Assembly (NCBI GenBank): GCA_964402785.1
Contig: CAYODQ010000005.1
Span: 1 to 61,710 of the forward strand
DNA from: an uncultured Planctomycetia bacterium
GTDB taxonomy: Bacteria; Omnitrophota; Gorgyraeia; 2-02-FULL-51-18
Direction: 5' to 3'
DNA length: 61,710 nucleotides
Part shown: one piece after another, positions 1-61,710 of the stretch
Layout: every line of letters starts with the position of its first letter
Numbering within the stretch: position 1 is the stretch's first letter
Notes under the pieces: generated by a model
Told to the model about the DNA's origin: nothing
Database searches by the model: none
What the model saw: only the letters and a program-made list of their open reading frames with translations
Position numbers and translations under genes: made by a program

Positions 1-28
1 TGCGGCTCCGGAGTCTCAACGACCGTAC

Positions 29-53
29 GAAAGCCTTCGGTTGACGGTTTACT
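29..53. repeat. 3' arm of a truncated AGTAAACC...GGTTTACT-bounded palindromic element at the window start
   Basis: GAAAGCCTTCGGTTGACGGTTTACT is the exact 25-bp reverse complement of 61663-61687; ends in GGTTTACT like the element at 35429-35583. Confidence 0.85.
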
Positions 54-74
54 GGGTGATATTCATAGACGGCT

Positions 75-136
75 GCATCCATGACTCGTTTTCACAGTAT
101 ATGAAAAGAATTCATCGTGGCGAAGACGAGTCTTGC
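75..136. ncRNA. Candidate structured motif, copy 1 (GACTCG/CGAGTC stem enclosing an ATGAA-loop-TTCAT hairpin)
   Basis: 37/43 nt identical (manual alignment of 75-116) to 35299-35341; both copies carry a downstream CGAGTC partner. Confidence 0.4.
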
Positions 137-281
137 TTAAGGCTCAAATGACGGAAAGCGCCCTCGGAGGGACGTTAAATCGACGAGCGAGGAGATTTCC
201 GAGCCCGATTTTTCTCGGTGGGGAAAATCGGGCGGTCCTGGAGAGGGTGCTTTCCGGCATTTGAGATTGAATCAAGACTCG
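127..281. repeat. Long imperfect palindrome H1 immediately 3' of folD
   Basis: Arms CGAGTCTTG/CAAGACTCG (127-135/273-281) and CTCAAATGACGGAAAGCGCCCTC/GAGGGTGCTTTCCGGCATTTGAG (143-165/243-265); apical GCCCGATTTT..GAAAATCGGGC. Confidence 0.85.
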
Positions 282-282
282 G

Positions 283-1110
283 CTATTTGGAAAGTTTATT
301 TTGGCGATTATGGAGACGAATGAGATTTTTGATCAGGGTGATGTTAGTGACGGGGCCGACACCGCCGGGGACTGGGGATATAAAAGATGCGCGAAGTTTG
401 GCGCTTTCGAAATCGACATCTCCCACGATCTTATTGCCCAGCATATTTTCACCCACATCGATGACGATGGCGCCTTTTTTGATCCATTCACCCTTAACGA
501 GATGTGCTTTCCCTGCCGCCGAGACCACGATATCCGCTCTTTGAATATGCGATTTGAGATCCCGCGTTTCTTTCTGACAAACCGTGACCGTTGCATGCCG
601 GTCCATCAAAAGCACCGCTGTGGGCTTGCCAACGATATCGCTGTGCCCTATCACAACAGCATCCAATCCAACCAAACTCTTATGCGTTGCATCCAAAAGT
701 GTCATGACGGCATTGGCTGTGGGCGAATAAACACCAAAATGACTTTTTAAAAAAGTGCGCCCCTCGACATCTTTTAGCGGATGGAGATTTTCAAAAACAT
801 TGGCATGGCTGATATGGCTGGGTAGCGGGGCGAACACCAGGATTCCGGTAATTTTTTTATTATCATTGAGAGAGGATATCTCGCTGATCAATTTTTTTTC
901 AGAAACTTTGGCGTTGAGCCATCTGGCTTCCAGGCGGATATCGATCTTGGCAAGCATCTTCTGTAAATACGTTTCGTAGACGCGGCTATCGGGCGCATCG
1001 CCGATACGTATGGTGGCAAGCGTCAGTTTGTTTTTTAAAGTTTTAAGTTCTCTCAGCGCAAGATCAAGCTCTTTGTCCGCCAATGCTTTGCCATTTAAGA
1101 TCACAGCCAT
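283..1110 (-). CDS. folD: Methylenetetrahydrofolate dehydrogenase (FolD family; cyclohydrolase residues substituted)
   Basis: KDVEG, GHSDIVGKP, DIVVSAAGK, IVIDVG, GDVDF, PVPGGVGPVT motifs. Confidence 0.95.
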   Translation of the reverse strand: MAVILNGKALADKELDLALRELKTLKNKLTLATIRIGDAPDSRVYETYLQKMLAKIDIRLEARWLNAKVSEKKLISEISSLNDNKKITGILVFAPLPSHISHANVFENLHPLKDVEGRTFLKSHFGVYSPTANAVMTLLDATHKSLVGLDAVVIGHSDIVGKPTAVLLMDRHATVTVCQKETRDLKSHIQRADIVVSAAGKAHLVKGEWIKKGAIVIDVGENMLGNKIVGDVDFESAKLRASFISPVPGGVGPVTNITLIKNLIRLHNRQNKLSK

Positions 1111-10301: not shown

Positions 10302-11279
10302 TTATTTGGCTCGCGCGTTAAATTGCGTATGATACAATCGACCAATTTTGATTCCGGCCCATCCGCAAAAGAACATCACAAAGTATCCTAGCAGTCCACC
10401 GGCAAGAAAAAACGGTCTTTCCCCGCCGCGCGCACCGTACTGAGCAGATGTTTTCATCATCATAAATAAGACGTAAAGAAACATCAGAAAGAATCGTCCA
10501 AGATTGAAATTGCCTCGCTTGTCATGAGCAAAAGCAAACAAGGCGCATGAAACGAGAGATGGGATGATGGATTCAAGGTAGCCCGTTCTGGATACGCTTC
10601 CCCAGATGATGGGCACGGCGATAAGCCCTCCGATCAGCATAACGCCCGATATATACGGAATATAATCCACCTCTTCAAACATCCCCTTTGCTGGGGGAGC
10701 GGGCTGCACATCCTTGGCGGGCATCGACGCAGTGACGGGAGCTGCTGGAATAGATGGAATAAGTTTCACGTCGGCTGGATACCCTCTCCAGGCAAACATT
10801 GCTTTTAATAGCAGTCCATATGCCAAGAAACCAAGCGATGCGGTCACTATCGAGAGTAAAGGCATCATTCTTGCGACGCTTGCCGTCGTGTACGCGGTCA
10901 TATACGCATCAAATACGAACTTAGGCGCCAACATTGAGATAGCCTCAAGGATAATAGCTATCCCCACAAATTGAAGGGGCTTTTTTTCTTCGGCCCACGA
11001 GAGTTGCCTCCAACACAGGACCGCGCAAACTAAGGCCAGAAACAAGATCCAATTCATTACTGATAAAACATGGAACACAACAATGATCATGTCAGAGTTC
11101 ATTGCAACCATCATCAGGAGGATCTGAAGGGCTGTGCTCAAAATGGCCAACAAAGTCTTGGCCGAAAAGACCATAAAGCCCATTTTTGCCGGCTGCTCGC
11201 CAAAAACTTGCATTTTTTTACATTGCTTGGCGGCGTGACTATAAAAAACTATAAAAAGGACCCCGATGATGATATGCAT
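10302..11279 (-). CDS. Hypothetical polytopic membrane protein with Pro/Ala linker
   Basis: ~9 hydrophobic segments; start likely MHIIIG. Confidence 0.7.
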   Translation of the reverse strand: MHIIIGVLFIVFYSHAAKQCKKMQVFGEQPAKMGFMVFSAKTLLAILSTALQILLMMVAMNSDMIIVVFHVLSVMNWILFLALVCAVLCWRQLSWAEEKKPLQFVGIAIILEAISMLAPKFVFDAYMTAYTTASVARMMPLLSIVTASLGFLAYGLLLKAMFAWRGYPADVKLIPSIPAAPVTASMPAKDVQPAPPAKGMFEEVDYIPYISGVMLIGGLIAVPIIWGSVSRTGYLESIIPSLVSCALFAFAHDKRGNFNLGRFFLMFLYVLFMMMKTSAQYGARGGERPFFLAGGLLGYFVMFFCGWAGIKIGRLYHTQFNARAK

Positions 11280-13332: not shown

Positions 13333-13384
13333 ACCTAACGCTTCCCCACCGGACTGCGTCCGGCATGCTGGATTATTGTTCCCG
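13333..13384 (-). repeat. attC-like site; right copy of a 32-bp direct repeat (in minus-strand reading)
   Basis: Minus strand: GAAC-AATAA-TCC..CCGGAC-GCA-GTCCGG..GGGGAAGC-GTTAGGT (GTTRRRY core). Confidence 0.4.
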
Positions 13385-13706
13385 CTTGGTAAACGAGCCA
13401 TGCATTGATAGCCGCGCAAATAGCAAGAGGAGCAACCGCAAGTAGGCCATAAACGGCGGGATTTGGGGAGTGCGTTTCATACCAAGCCACATAACCACTG
13501 CCTTGGATAACTGGAAAAGCGAGTATACTCCAAGGCAAGGTGACAAGAATTGGAAGTACGCCACAAAACTCAGACTGTGCCGTGTGAAAAATCAAAAAAT
13601 AAAACATCGACCCAACCGCCAGCGCAAAAATAGCCAAATAAACCGCCGCAAACCAGATGCCCATCCTAAATTTTGCCCGATCATTCACAGCGCGCTCACC
13701 CTCCAT
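13335..13706 (-). CDS. Cassette-like hypothetical membrane protein
   Basis: GAGGAG SD before ATG 13706; 3 TM; bracketed by 32-bp direct repeats. Confidence 0.7.
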   Translation of the reverse strand: MEGERAVNDRAKFRMGIWFAAVYLAIFALAVGSMFYFLIFHTAQSEFCGVLPILVTLPWSILAFPVIQGSGYVAWYETHSPNPAVYGLLAVAPLAICAAINAWLVYQAGTIIQHAGRSPVGKR

Positions 13707-13734
13707 TTTCTCCTCTCGCCTGCCGTAAAAAATT

Positions 13735-13766
13735 CTAATGCTTCCCCACCGGACTACGTCCGGCAT
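13735..13766 (-). repeat. 32-bp direct repeat of 13335-13366 (half attC-like site, core mutated to ATTAGAA)
   Basis: CTAATGCTTCCCCACCGGACTACGTCCGGCAT vs CTAACGCTTCCCCACCGGACTGCGTCCGGCAT, 30/32 identical. Confidence 0.85.
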
Positions 13767-15519: not shown

Positions 15520-16482
15520 ATAAGGTGTCAGTCCTTGACATTTGACACCTTGGCTTCGAGGACCTCAATAGATCTTTCAAGATGCCTGTCCTTTTCTAAC
15601 TTCGCTCTCATTCTGCGCGCAATCTGAGACACGGCAGAATGCGATATTTGAAACATATCCCCTATTTCTCTTTGTGTTGTTCTGGCATACTTGGTAAGCA
15701 TATATATCTGTTGGTTCTTAGGGTAACCTTGGCACAACCGAACAATATTTGCCAGAGGTCGCTGAAAGATCCTTTTTCTCCCCTGAAAGTCTATCTGAGT
15801 TTTATTTGAGATCTTGGTCTTCACTTTATTTAAAAAATCCTCGCTACCCAGGATAGCACCACCTCGAGCGTTTTTTAAAATATCTTGTTGGTCGTTTAGT
15901 CCCTCAAGCACAAAGCTGCGGTACATAGCAGACGATTCAAACTGGCCCAGCGTAAAATCTTTATGGAGAAAATTGGGCGACTTCTCCTTCAGATAATAGC
16001 GCATACTGGAATATTCATGATCTTCCGGATATTTGGTAAGCTTTGCCTTGACCGGATTCAGATGAATATACCGACTCACCTGCAAAAAATAAGCGTCTTT
16101 ATCAACCAAGAGAGCCTTGTATCTTCCCTGAAAAAGGTGACCAACTCTCTTATGTCTGCGGTTAAAACGCTGTGTATAAAGCCCAAGAAGACGCTTCATG
16201 ATATATGAGAGATTGGGATCTTTGGTCTCAATGAGAATATGAAAATGATTGGGCATGAGAGAGTATGCGTGGACAAGGAAATTGTAGGTCAAGGCAGAGT
16301 CGCTGAGAATATCTAGAAAAAGGTTGTAATCGTGGGCCGATCGAAAAATAGACTTACGTTCATTTCCTCGGGAGAAAACGTGGTAGACGGCGTCCGGATA
16401 CTCGATTCGCAGTGGGCGACCCATGCTAGTAAAGTAACATTAATAACGAGCATGTGTCAAATGTCAAGGACTGACACCTTAT
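15520..16482 (-). mobile_element. HUH Y1 transposase element bounded by perfect 29-bp terminal inverted repeats
   Basis: ATAAGGTGTCAGTCCTTGACATTTGACAC at 15520-15548 and its exact reverse complement at 16454-16482. Confidence 0.9.
15528..16424 (-). CDS. RAYT/TnpA-Y1 HUH tyrosine transposase with C-terminal HTH
   Basis: YHVFSRGN, LMPNHFH (HUH), GHLFQGRY, YIHLNP (catalytic Tyr), YSS, C-terminal HTH (TQREIGDMFQISHSAVS). Confidence 0.93.
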   Translation of the reverse strand: MGRPLRIEYPDAVYHVFSRGNERKSIFRSAHDYNLFLDILSDSALTYNFLVHAYSLMPNHFHILIETKDPNLSYIMKRLLGLYTQRFNRRHKRVGHLFQGRYKALLVDKDAYFLQVSRYIHLNPVKAKLTKYPEDHEYSSMRYYLKEKSPNFLHKDFTLGQFESSAMYRSFVLEGLNDQQDILKNARGGAILGSEDFLNKVKTKISNKTQIDFQGRKRIFQRPLANIVRLCQGYPKNQQIYMLTKYARTTQREIGDMFQISHSAVSQIARRMRAKLEKDRHLERSIEVLEAKVSNVKD

Positions 16483-17108: not shown

Positions 17109-17161
17109 ATTCGCGCCCTTCGTATAACTCTGCCATTAAGTTATTCCGCTGCTAACCGCGC

Positions 17162-17386
17162 ATCTAACCGGACGTGGTCAGCGGTACCGTCCCGTTTTAG
17201 CAACGATTCGTTGACTAGCTTTGAATGTCCGACCCTGTTTCCATTCCAGCGCTTTGCGGACTTTCGATGCTTTACACCTAACCGGACGTGGTCCGCGTTA
17301 CCTGTGTGTGTTAGCGCCGATCCCTTGACTTGTTTCGAATCTACGTGGCCAGCAACTGCCACCATTCGGACCACGTCCGTATGAGT
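17162..17386 (-). repeat. Cluster of attC-like remnants (CTAACCGGACGTGGTC twice, plus inverted CGGACCACGTCCG)
   Basis: RYYYAAC at 17162 and 17276; a 13-bp perfect arm pair 17283-17295/17367-17379. Confidence 0.45.
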
Positions 17387-17440: not shown

Positions 17441-17581
17441 CTCTTCAGCATAAGCATTTGCGAGGGGTGACTCTGTGCGGGGGTCCCCCGGAAAAACGGA
17501 GTGCCAGGCGAAGCCGCCGACACGAGTATTTTCTGGGGGTGCAGCACGGAGGCAGGACCCCGAGATGCGCATGTTAAAGAG
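17441..17581. repeat. Long imperfect palindrome H2 downstream of the groEL terminator
   Basis: CTCTTCAGCATAAGCAT/ATGCGCATGTTAAAGAG outer arms; CCCCCGGAAAA/TTTTCTGGGGG inner arms; GCGAAGC mini-hairpin. Confidence 0.75.
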
Positions 17582-19923: not shown

Positions 19924-20208
19924 TATGCATCCTAGCGGCAAGATATATTGATCTTGTTTGTTCCCGGCCTTTTCCGAGCGCCTATAGCTTTGTCATAAAT
20001 GGCAATGGAGACGCCAATCCGAACGAAGTGAGGGCTAGAAGTCCCATTTGCCGCCGCACGAGTAGATGCAGGAGTTCCTTCGGCGGCAAACGGACTTTTG
20101 GCGAGCCTGCCTGCCGGCAGGCAGGGGTCCATGCCATTTATGACAAAGCTATGCGAGGAAAAGGGTAAGGGCAAACAAGATCAATATATCTTGCCGGCGA
20201 GCATGCAT
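19924..20208. repeat. Long palindrome H4 (~285 bp) with nested 20-bp CCTGCCTGCCGGCAGGCAGG
   Basis: Perfect 25-bp arms 19936-19960/20172-20196 and 21-bp arms 19984-20004/20132-20152. Confidence 0.92.
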
Positions 20209-34991: not shown

Positions 34992-35085
34992 AAGAAGTTA
35001 AGTATGAATCCCCTATAAAATTTACGAGCTTTTCAGTATAGCAAACGGCTAAATATTGGTCAATACACCGAACTCCCCAAGAATC

Positions 35086-35299
35086 CAACCTTTGATACGA
35101 AAGCGCACACAAGCCGACAAGGGATATCTCCCTTCGGATACGCCTGCCTGCTGGCAGGCAGGCTCCGAGGCCCCTGCGAGGCCTCTCGCTTCTCGGGCTC
35201 CTCGGCTAAGTTAAAACCAACCGTTCCCTGCGCCTCGTCGTCCCGGGACTCCTCTGGGAGATATCCCTCGGCTTGGGATGCTTTTCTTATGAAAGGTTG
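35086..35299. repeat. Long palindrome H5 with nested CCTGCCTGCTGGCAGGCAGG (35143-35162)
   Basis: CAACCTTT/AAAGGTTG, CAAGCCGA/TCGGCTTG and AGGGATATCTCC/GGAGATATCCCT arms. Confidence 0.88.
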
Positions 35300-35401
35300 T
35301 ATCCGTGACTCGTTTACCCAGGTATATGAAAAAAATTCATCCTTTATGCTCGTGTTTTGGAGGATTTTGTTTCGTATGATGCGGAAGCGAGTCATGAATA
35401 C
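35299..35401. ncRNA. Candidate structured motif, copy 2
   Basis: GTATCCGTGACTCGTTT...AAGCGAGTCATGAATAC stem enclosing ATGAA/TTCAT; homologous to 75-136. Confidence 0.4.
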
Positions 35402-35428
35402 AAGCCACTGATTCTAATAAGCATCTAA

Positions 35429-35583
35429 AGTAAACCGATAAGGGGTATATCCGTAGGGAGTCTCGAAACCCCGGAGACGCACGGAACATCTATTTTTTTT
35501 ATAGCCGACGGGGTGAGATGAGCGAGGTGCCTCGCAGGGGCACCGGAGTGAGTCCGTAGGGGAATGCCTATTGGGGGTTTACT
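35429..35583. repeat. Palindrome H6 (AGTAAACC...GGTTTACT), same family as H5 but inverted
   Basis: 35504-35563 aligns with the minus strand of 35135-35206 once the 20-bp insert is removed. Confidence 0.8.
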
Positions 35584-35597
35584 GCGTACTTATTTGG

Positions 35598-36002
35598 TTA
35601 TGCTTGTATTCCTGAGGAGCCGTTTATCATGTCGAATTTTATGGAGTGCATGAAGACGACAGTGTAGATGTGTAGATTTTGGACGACGTAGAAGCTGCCG
35701 ATGACTCGGTATATCATTTGGCCGACACCGGTTTTATTATCGAATATTTTTTTGATGGATACATGGCGGTCTTTTTTGGCCCCCATGACTTTTTGTGTCT
35801 CCATCCAATTGTTGAGCTGGGTTGGATCCTGTGATTGATTTTGCTCAAAAATATAATAGGAAAATTTCTTTTCTGCCCGGGCTGTCATGCCACCTTGGTC
35901 GATCAGTTCGACGATCGAGAGGTTGCGTCTTTTATGGTTCACGGACTCTGTCTGCTTGATACATATTTCGCGCATTTCACTCACCCTAAAGTTATTAAAC
36001 AT
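35598..36002 (-). CDS. Hypothetical (orphan) protein
   Basis: 134-aa ORF, co-directional with neighbours; no motif recognised. Confidence 0.65.
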   Translation of the reverse strand: MFNNFRVSEMREICIKQTESVNHKRRNLSIVELIDQGGMTARAEKKFSYYIFEQNQSQDPTQLNNWMETQKVMGAKKDRHVSIKKIFDNKTGVGQMIYRVIGSFYVVQNLHIYTVVFMHSIKFDMINGSSGIQA

Positions 36003-60388: not shown

Positions 60389-61654
60389 ATGAATGCAGAA
60401 ATTATCTCCATCGGCACCGAAATTTTGATCGGATCCATCACAAATACCAATTCCCGGTATTTGTCAGAAAAGCTTGCCCTAAACGGAATCGATGTGTTTC
60501 GTCACACCACCGTCGGTGATAACTTGCGCAGACTGATCCAAGTATTTGAAGAGGCATCCTCTCGGGCGGATATCCTTATTACATCCGGAGGCCTTGGCCC
60601 CACTGAAGATGACATCACAACCCTGGCGGCCTCGCAATTTTTAGGCAAAAAACTTGCTTTGCATGAACCCACGCGCGAGGCCATAAGTTTGAAACTCAAA
60701 AAACTGGGCAAAAAAATTTCCCCGCTTATCGAAAAGCAATGTTGGTTGCCTTCCGATTCAATTATTTTTCAAAATGATAACGGAACGGCTCCTGCTTTTT
60801 TATCTCCTGTGATTCGCAATCAAAAAAAAGTTTGGCTGCTTTGTTTGCCTGGACCACCGCGAGAGCTTCAGCCGCTTTTTGAGCAGAAAACTTTGCCTTA
60901 CCTGATCAAGCGCCTGGAACTCAAGCACCAAACATTTCAGATCCGTACACTTAAGATCTATGGCACGGAATCATCGGTAGCAGAAAAAGTTGGCGATCTT
61001 CTTAAATTAAAACCTCCCGTCACCCTGGGGATCTATGCCAAGCCGGGTCTCGTTGAACTTAAAATCATGAGTAAGGACGTATCCACCAAGAAAACTACTA
61101 CCCATGTCACGCGATTGGAAAAAGTCATTCGTCAGCGTCTAGGGAGCAATGTGTACGGAGTCGATAATCAAACCATGGCAGATGCTCTTGGTACGCTCAT
61201 GACTAAGAACCACCTCTCCCTCTCTGTAGCAGAATCTTGCACAGGCGGCTTATTGGGGCATGAAATCACGCAATTCTCTGGAGCATCGAAATTTTTTAAA
61301 GGCTCCGTTGTGGCTTATGCCAATGAGGTAAAAGAAAATCTACTTGGTGTATCCAAAAAAACGCTCAGCGCTCATGGTGCCGTCAGCGAAGCTGTGGCAA
61401 GATCTATGGCAGAAAATGTGCGCCTTAAATTTGGAACAGATTACGGCATCGCGATCACAGGAATAGCCGGGCCTGGAGGCGCCACCAAAACCAAGCCCGT
61501 TGGACTTGTTTATATCGCAATATCCTCCACTCGCGGAACACAAGTCACTAAAAATTTATTCATGGGTTCGAGGACGGAGATCAAACAGCGCGCAGCTCTA
61601 AAAGCGATGGATCTCCTTCGCCTCCTACTCACCAAGAATCCACCCCTCGAATGA
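60389..61654 (+). CDS. cinA: CinA competence/damage-inducible protein (MocF + PncC NMN deamidase domain)
   Basis: IGTEIL, GGLGPTEDD, LPGPPRE, AESCTGG, ITGIAGPGG. Confidence 0.96.
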   Translation: MNAEIISIGTEILIGSITNTNSRYLSEKLALNGIDVFRHTTVGDNLRRLIQVFEEASSRADILITSGGLGPTEDDITTLAASQFLGKKLALHEPTREAISLKLKKLGKKISPLIEKQCWLPSDSIIFQNDNGTAPAFLSPVIRNQKKVWLLCLPGPPRELQPLFEQKTLPYLIKRLELKHQTFQIRTLKIYGTESSVAEKVGDLLKLKPPVTLGIYAKPGLVELKIMSKDVSTKKTTTHVTRLEKVIRQRLGSNVYGVDNQTMADALGTLMTKNHLSLSVAESCTGGLLGHEITQFSGASKFFKGSVVAYANEVKENLLGVSKKTLSAHGAVSEAVARSMAENVRLKFGTDYGIAITGIAGPGGATKTKPVGLVYIAISSTRGTQVTKNLFMGSRTEIKQRAALKAMDLLRLLLTKNPPLE

Positions 61655-61662
61655 AGGTATGA

Positions 61663-61710
61663 AGTAAACCGTCAACCGAAGGCTTTCTACCGGCCCACCT
61701 GCCTGCCGGC
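61663..61710. repeat. 5' arm of a truncated AGTAAACC-type palindromic element; window ends inside a CCTGCCTGCCGGC[AGGCAGG] module
   Basis: Exact inverted match to 29-53; the last 13 nt match the first 13 nt of the 20-bp module. Confidence 0.85.

Follow-up and report, generated by a model that had tools for sequence, protein, structure and literature searches.

Miniature elements of the Correia and ERIC type (MITEs) are gene-less, intergenic and shorter than 600 bp, carry terminal inverted repeats and can alter the ends of genes. PATEs, which are derived from IS200/IS605 elements, possess unlike ends, are recognized via hairpins, show strand polarity and produce no target duplication; the end hairpins of IS200/IS605 elements are short and located on one strand. 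Bacterial MITEs that harbor internal functional motifs have been described for the Correia elements of Neisseria and for ERIC (PMC3184786, PMC2229807). The BIMEs of E. coli consist of REP/iREP pairs with linkers, and the L linker of BIME-1 is conserved and often contains an IHF site (PMC3333891, PMC2817692). REPINs and their RAYT (Y1) transposases served as a further comparison (PMC3116915, PMC3333891, PMC3733652). The purified RAYT of E. coli requires GTAG and a stem mismatch, cuts iREP and linker, and recombines iREP and linker sites in vitro (PMC3333891). Concerning repeats of Omnitrophota, only general papers on REP, REPIN and MITE elements were found among the literature matches listed.

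The window analyzed here is the entire contig C5 (61,710 bp) of a fragmented MAG with 2.05 Mb in 77 contigs (bin 91% complete). Almost all genes of the window are carried by the minus strand, and the relatives of its GpsA are all from Candidatus Omnitrophota MAGs, with a best identity of 66%. The window contains two copies of a motif, here named B, at positions 61-121 and 35286-35343. B forms the AT-rich inner end (the linker) of non-coding hairpin repeats that belong to a lineage-specific family, and unlike hairpin modules are joined at this place. The arrangement of this family is best read as BIME-like and its dimers as REPIN-like, which shows that Omnitrophota possess genome furniture of the BIME/REPIN style, here branched and of far greater size.

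Copies and sequence of motif B

The preliminary description of the window had placed both stretches correctly and had recognized their similarity, for which BLASTN with the whole genome gave 85% identity over 47 nt (71-116 vs 35295-35341, E = 5e-7). Its view that the motif is merely duplicated had to be given up. An nhmmer search with a single sequence yielded 25 matches in the genome, and an nhmmer profile applied to the whole genome located 25 full B arms, one degenerate inverted arm and approximately five fragments. A sequence-only covariance model of B (R1) agreed with the profile result, with E-values down to 1e-18. B thus comprises approximately 55 bases and occurs at least 26 times in the genome, whereas the preliminary description had regarded a restriction to two copies as an argument against its own reading. 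The consensus reads AAAGGCTG[GTATCC/GGATAC]GTGRCTCGTTTWCMCA(A)GTATATGAAAGTAATTCATCC, with AGTATA invariant or nearly so in 25 copies, and the GC content of the core is 31-37% vs 57% in the hairpins. Every copy is intergenic according to a crude ORF filter, and seven copies are located within approximately 135 nt of a contig end. At least 26 intergenic copies at the inner end of a hairpin-forming repeat indicate that B belongs to repetitive, and probably mobile, non-coding DNA.

Architecture of the hairpin units

The repeat unit starts with a sharp outer terminus, ACTCCCCAAGAATCC, continues with a long branched hairpin of approximately 210-250 nt and ends with B. The genome harbors 17 complete units of this type with a length of 259-294 nt. 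An outer terminus was found 259-294 nt upstream in 17 of the 18 B copies with enough sequence, and the seven B copies without a detectable terminus adjoin contig ends. The B copy on contig C63 is preceded by a C hairpin instead of a terminus unit. Of the D-type hairpins, 14 have an inner end that can be read, and 12 of these ends lead into B. The outside flanks of approximately 38 terminus copies are unrelated to each other, and a model of the outer terminus (R2) gave 62 matches in this genome. The foot of B (AAAGGCTGGATAC) pairs with the terminus region GAATCCAGCCTT and therefore forms the base of the big hairpin. In addition, the outer terminus (ACTCCCCAAGAAT) resembles a part of B (ACTCGTTTTCCCAAGTAT) that is present in 9 of 25 copies.

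Any two whole units share 61-86% identity. Pairwise identity between units amounts to 95% in the terminus and 80% in the B core, compared to 68% in the hairpin between them. A two-arm model of the long hairpins showed only approximately 60% complementarity because the hairpins are branched, and it was replaced by an analysis of the long basal stem. At least two types of Watson-Crick pairs occur in 14 of the 24 basal-stem columns, and the arms of the same unit are paired to 81%, compared to 72% across units (maximum 79% in 500 permutations). The basal stem varies among subfamilies and stays paired inside each unit; 5 of the 17 units are chimeras with arms from different subfamilies.

In the orientation of B, the left neighbor is a hairpin of the D or A type, whereas the right neighbor is a C hairpin (approximately 10 copies), an E hairpin (approximately six) or, at two loci, an inverted B followed by F, which is the D type inverted. 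Head-to-head dimers, in which two units form one long palindrome, occur at only 2 of approximately 24 loci; more often, a C or E hairpin of constant relative orientation takes the place of the second unit, as in window copy 1. One is located in the window (Table 1); the second, on contig C61 (5700-6254, 555 bp), is better preserved. The long palindromes that had been reported around both window copies were recovered at 1-66 and 124-284 for copy 1 and at 35081-35305 and 35400-35600 for copy 2. In copy 1, a 13-nt remnant of the inverted arm separates the B arm from the C hairpin. What had been described as a variable insertion of approximately 36 nt in copy 2 turned out to consist of a loop and of a second, inverted arm in degenerate form (35358-35405), and this arm makes copy 2 a palindrome centered near 35350.

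Table 1. Coordinates of the features at both B loci and at the contig ends of the window.
Feature	Positions	Strand	Support
Inner arm of A-subtype long hairpin; contig starts inside hairpin	1-70	+	
B arm copy 1: foot GGCTGCATCC, then core GACTCGTTTTCACAGTATATGAAAAGAATTCATC	61-121	+	R1 match 65-121, E = 3.8e-17
Small B hairpin, copy 1	83-132	+	closing stem GACTCG/CGAGTC 83-88/127-132; inner hairpin ATGAA/TTCAT 101-105/111-115
C-family long hairpin; right foot ends at folD stop codon (283-285)	124-284	+	
gpsA promoter-like TTGACC-17-TATACT; outside element, conserved in relatives	35035-35063	-	
Complete 549-bp palindrome, two units head to head	35072-35620	.	self-complementarity, termini, empty orthologous sites
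Left outer terminus ACTCCCCAAGAATCC	35072-35086	+	R2 match 35072-35134
Long branched hairpin D, with optional 20-nt palindrome 35143-35162	35081-35305	+	
B arm copy 2	35286-35343	+	R1 E = 3.2e-16
Central loop of palindrome	35344-35357	.	
Degenerate inverted B arm (B')	35358-35405	-	nhmmer E = 3.7e-6; R1 E = 7.4e-7
Long hairpin F = inverted D-type unit; GTAG on + strand	35400-35600	+	
Right outer terminus GCTCCTCAGGAATAC	35606-35620	-	R2 match 35557-35619
Outer terminus and outer arm of A-subtype unit, other contig end	61627-61710	+	

The families seeded from the window form 89 islands that make up 0.76% of the genome. Family modules are located within 300 nt of 44 of the 154 contig ends, and over a quarter of the ends thus represent breaks of the assembly caused by the family. 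Positions 29-53 of the window are 100% identical at at least 10 other places, mostly contig ends. The two ends of the window itself (1-66 and 61627-61710) are inverted copies of the A-subtype unit, with 25 identical nucleotides at 29-53 and 61663-61687. The assembly broke inside hairpins of the B-unit family at both ends of this contig.

Some further repeats were observed beside these units. The 20-nt palindrome CCTGCCTGC(C/T)GGCAGGCAGG, which is found in the window at 35143-35162 and 20106-20125 and in units on C2, C19, C61 and C7, is precisely missing from otherwise similar cores and behaves as a separate optional insert. Contig C33 harbors a mini-element of 76 nt (11154-11229) that consists of two outer termini and hairpin feet without core or B. 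A k-mer census revealed a separate family of repeat islands of approximately 102 nt on many contigs, for example at C23:9775-9876, C24:19955-20056 and C26:24168-24270.

Insertion sites, lineage specificity and strand polarity

Related MAGs, in which the preliminary description had expected further copies to be sought, do not contain the family: R1 found B in none of 60 relatives from the same family, order and class, and R2 found the outer terminus in none of 39. A strict pattern, which recovers 16 of the 26 copies in this genome, had zero matches in 185,579 species genomes, a metagenome collection and a viral collection. A looser first pattern gave only single chance matches in unrelated phyla and was discarded as too loose.

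The gene order orf134-gpsA is kept in nine relatives, in which both genes are separated by spacers of approximately 60-150 nt with a conserved TTGACC-N17-TATACT promoter. In the window the distance between these genes is 606 nt; it accommodates the 549-bp element, one edge of which lies 8 nt before the -35 box. Its other edge lies seven codons before the present stop codon of orf134. The right terminus encodes the last seven residues (GSSGIQA) and the stop codon (35598-35600) of this 134-aa gene, the orthologues of which end differently in the relatives. The family therefore rewrites gene ends, in this case by supplying seven codons and a stop. Between up274 and hldE a gap of 623 nt contains a terminus-hairpin-B-E array, whereas the gap measures only 35-100 nt in six relatives. 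No long inverted repeats were found upstream of hldE in two relatives in which its neighbor differs. As the same flanking genes are separated by spacers of only 35-150 nt in the relatives, the corresponding sites are empty there. Neither dimer shows a target duplication, and the flanks on both sides differ (...GATAAACG / element / TCGGTGTA in the window, CATGA vs GTTAG on C61). A conserved target tetranucleotide was not seen outside the terminus. The preliminary description had offered the conserved core of a composite non-autonomous element as one of its readings, and this one is supported by a genome-wide mosaic module with sharp boundaries that is absent in relatives and has empty orthologous sites.

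At the relatives' loci L001, L003, L005 and L006 the TTGACC-N17-TATACT promoter is conserved in sequence and position. It occurs in a slightly different context at L004, and L002 has TTGACC with GATAAACT. Several of the empty spacers contain a C-rich, CCCCCAA-like stretch that resembles the outer terminus of the element.

In 15 of 18 copies, or 13 of 16 if the two symmetric dimers are excluded, the C/E side is turned toward the 3' end of a gene, and the terminus side faces a 5' region in nine copies and a 3' end in six, where all counts rest on the crude ORF filter as gene calls and overstate independence because the copies descend from few masters. With the same restriction on independence, folding of the left hairpin is favored on the strand opposite to B in 16 of 18 cases and that of the right hairpins on the B strand in 22 of 22, with the G.U counts shifting accordingly. 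The GC skew of the B strand ranges from -0.28 to -0.12 over the left hairpin, is approximately 0 at B and reaches +0.10 to +0.25 over C/E and the last approximately 150 nt of the adjacent (upstream) gene. Between -250 and +400 relative to B, the skew and the polarity of G.U pairs change sign exactly at B. The tetranucleotide GTAG was found 17 times on the strand opposite to B and never on the B strand of the units, compared to approximately five per strand expected from the genome-wide rate. Most occurrences lie at an internal junction, 58-63 nt away from the terminus, rather than at the outer foot; GTAG is lacking in 4 of the 17 units, and C/E modules are not enriched in it. The polarity flip at B and the strand-exclusive GTAG provide a handle on whether hairpin repeats act as DNA or as RNA.

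Comparison with known elements and alternative readings of B

With BIMEs the family shares extragenic mosaic arrays in which hairpins of alternating polarity are separated by a conserved, non-palindromic linker, chimeric ("atypical") module combinations, a location at gene 3' ends and a proportion of approximately 1% of the genome (here 0.76%). The mosaic takes the form [D/A hairpin]-B-[C, E, or B'+F], with flanking hairpins of opposite polarity (16/18 left, 22/22 right), and the presumed joining role of B can be likened to that of the L linker between REP and iREP in BIME-1 of E. coli. However, the hairpins are branched and 150-290 nt long, compared to 20-40 nt in BIMEs, the sequences are unrelated, including those of the y, z1 and z2 REPs, the partners of B belong to different hairpin families, and tandem iteration is absent. 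REPINs resemble the family in that two inverted units form one long hairpin, as in the dimers of 549 and 555 bp, and further in compensatory changes that keep the stems, a candidate strand-specific GTAG tag, the lack of target duplication and single-copy Y1_Tnp genes. In contrast to REPs, which are imperfect palindromes of 20-40 nt, the units are approximately seven times longer. REPs carry a conserved GTAG (or CGTC) on one strand beside the foot of the palindrome; the GTAG of the present units lies at an internal junction and is not present in all of them. The Y1 genes are flanked by other short hairpins, and neither the REP unit size nor a cognate RAYT flanked by the same repeats was found. 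Like MITEs, the elements are gene-less and intergenic, the dimers have inverted termini, and one element supplies codons and a stop to a gene. Only the dimers possess terminal inverted repeats, with ACTCCCCAAGAATCC on either side and a match at 11 of 15 positions in the window copy, whereas most copies have two unlike ends; the target-site duplication and the parent IS with the same ends that characterize MITEs derived from DDE transposons were both absent, the latter as judged from the assembly. PATEs agree with the family in their unlike left and right ends, hairpins, strand polarity and lack of target duplication, but the hairpins found here are long and no target tetranucleotide is conserved outside the terminus.

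The small stems of B raise the question whether it is an independent structured ncRNA gene or a riboswitch-like leader. As noted in the preliminary description, the closing stem GACTCG/CGAGTC (35307-35312 with 35388-35393 in copy 2) and the inner hairpin ATGAA/TTCAT (35326-35330 with 35336-35340) are present in both window copies, and both copies fold better than shuffled sequences (-19.5 kcal/mol, z = -3.2 for copy 1; -42.1 kcal/mol, z = -6.1 for copy 2, 35296-35405). The proposed excess of G.T wobbles on the plus strand, which would also agree with an RNA, applies to copy 2 (-42.1 vs -27.2 kcal/mol on the opposite strand), but neither to copy 1 (-19.5 vs -20.4 kcal/mol) nor to the family, as 25 copies show no strand preference of the small hairpin (15 vs 10, p = 0.46) and 53 G.U pairs on each strand. 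Pairing in the inner stem amounts to 90%, yet double-sided changes are absent from it and shuffles perform equally well. The closing stem occurs in nearly all copies, and its R/Y position is occupied by A-T, G-C, G.T and mismatches in combinations that look random. Selected RNA stems in B were thus rejected for lack of compensatory changes in either stem, and B itself shows the absence of covariation that the preliminary description had named as speaking against a structured element. In a search of the whole window with Rfam 15, tRNA-Pro alone reached the gathering score. Only miRNA-precursor and snoRNA models appeared at the two B loci, with 13-20 bits compared to gathering thresholds of 35-100; these are generic hairpin matches. 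As nothing exceeded Rfam noise, a known RNA family was rejected, in agreement with the earlier failure to recognize a riboswitch or T-box. Together with the absence of B from all relatives and the dispersal of 26 copies that are mostly antisense to their neighbors, these results do not support the suggested novel ncRNA or cis element, and an independent structured ncRNA gene or riboswitch-like leader is highly improbable. The probability that B is a decayed fragment of a protein-coding gene (DEFFSYT / WxNESRIQP) is close to negligible, even though the copy 2 region is spanned by a 111-aa ORF on the minus strand (35060-35395) and QDELLSYTWENESRIQP can be read in several copies. The reported DEFFSYT reading does exist on the minus strand, but it is a mere echo of nucleotide conservation: the plus strand yields equally "conserved" peptides, as any conserved DNA would. 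The reading DE[LF][LF]SYT meets a stop within 2-10 codons in most copies, is parted from WxNESRIQP by a 1-nt indel (CACAG vs CCCAAG) in more than half of the copies and has no start codon in copy 1, and a Pfam search of the 111-aa ORF gave nothing at E-values up to 10. A coding origin was rejected on these grounds. Annotation of B as ncRNA or as a 111-aa "hypothetical protein" should be avoided.

It is unlikely, but compatible with a mobile origin, that the arrays represent a domesticated cis element serving termination or the read-through mRNA. Along the sense strand, a C-rich gene tail and a weakened C'/E' hairpin would be followed by B', which would mark a switch, and by a strong G-rich hairpin; such an array might act as Rho-dependent or roadblock terminator, as insulator or as 3'-end stabilizer. 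The orientation of the C/E side toward gene 3' ends in 15 of 18 copies, the occupation of the space between stop codon and promoter, the change of the B-strand GC skew from negative to positive across B and the better folding of left hairpins on the sense strand of their usual neighbors (16/18) are consistent with this role. However, the same gene pairs of relatives manage with spacers of 35-150 nt without the element, covariation is absent in B, folding of the C/E hairpins is poorer on the mRNA strand (22 of 22 cases), and a T-run terminator is absent. A protein-binding site in B, such as an IHF-like nucleoid site, or an outward-firing -10 box is very unlikely. The conserved AGTATA corresponds to TATACT on the opposite strand, the core is AT-rich, ATGAA-N5-TTCAT constitutes a 15-bp dyad, and the strand that would be transcribed from such a promoter is the one on which the left hairpin folds better. 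Against this, an IHF-like WATCAR-N4-TTR motif is absent by inspection, a conserved -35 box and a TG extension are lacking, and neither function explains the strand preference of the C/E hairpins. A sigma-70 promoter was rejected, since the single match of a promoter scan, in copy 1, was weak (9/12) and copy 2 had no match.

The best explanation, which we regard as probable, is a lineage-specific hairpin family with B as inner end that spreads, or once spread, as folded single-stranded DNA. The units would move without target duplication, and the most plausible route would be handling in trans by a Y1/HUH (RAYT-like) enzyme. Pointers to such a route are the missing target duplication at both dimers, the strand-exclusive GTAG, which 4 of the 17 units lack, the five Y1_Tnp genes of the genome, the chimeric units and the low GC content of the B core. 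The arrays themselves were inserted between the stop codon of a gene and the next promoter. B would serve as an easily melted hinge and as a conserved joining region between oppositely oriented hairpins. A recombination of iREP and linker of the RAYT type would yield module shuffling as it is seen in the B units. The confinement of the family to one genome counts against mobility, and the units, which are 61-86% identical, are old and give no sign of recent movement. Multi-copy IS were not found in the assembly, no terminus pair encloses a gene, and no repeat island exceeds approximately 560 nt; as the bin is only 91% complete, a parent IS may simply be unassembled. The orientation bias, the flip of skew polarity and the higher conservation of B point to a possible host function as opposed to selfish spread, and such a role at gene ends is possible alongside a mobile origin. 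A scaled-up REPIN-like system, in which single-stranded units of approximately 270 nt are moved by Y1 and kept by the host at gene ends as a polar termination or insulation device, is conceivable but distinctly improbable. Its unit would be a three-way-junction hairpin with co-evolving stems and GTAG as strand-specific tag, and along the mRNA a C-rich, weakly folded gene tail with C'/E' would lead via the AT-rich B' switch to a roadblock hairpin that is rich in G, folds strongly and lies immediately ahead of the next promoter.

The genome contains five different single-copy Y1_Tnp genes. The flanks of all five harbor other short REP-like hairpins and gave no BLAST match to modules A-F or B, and a link of these genes to the family via shared flanking repeats was rejected. 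The four genes outside the window are located on C26, C11, C15 and C9, and the copy on C9 has lost the HUH histidines (NRIELLV). The Y1_Tnp gene of the window (15528-16424, minus strand) encodes an IS200/RAYT-like protein of 298 aa with a C-terminal sigma70_r4-like HTH. It lies between the two arms of a perfect inverted repeat of 29 nt (15520-15548, 16454-16482) that is unique in the genome. Two further repeats were observed in the window. A 143-aa ORF at 13335-13766 on the minus strand carries a 32-nt direct repeat with 94% identity at both ends (13335-13366, 13735-13766), and a pair of 71-nt direct repeats (17161-17231 and 17275-17345), 75% identical and 114 nt apart, lies in a non-coding gap by the hairpin 17441-17581.
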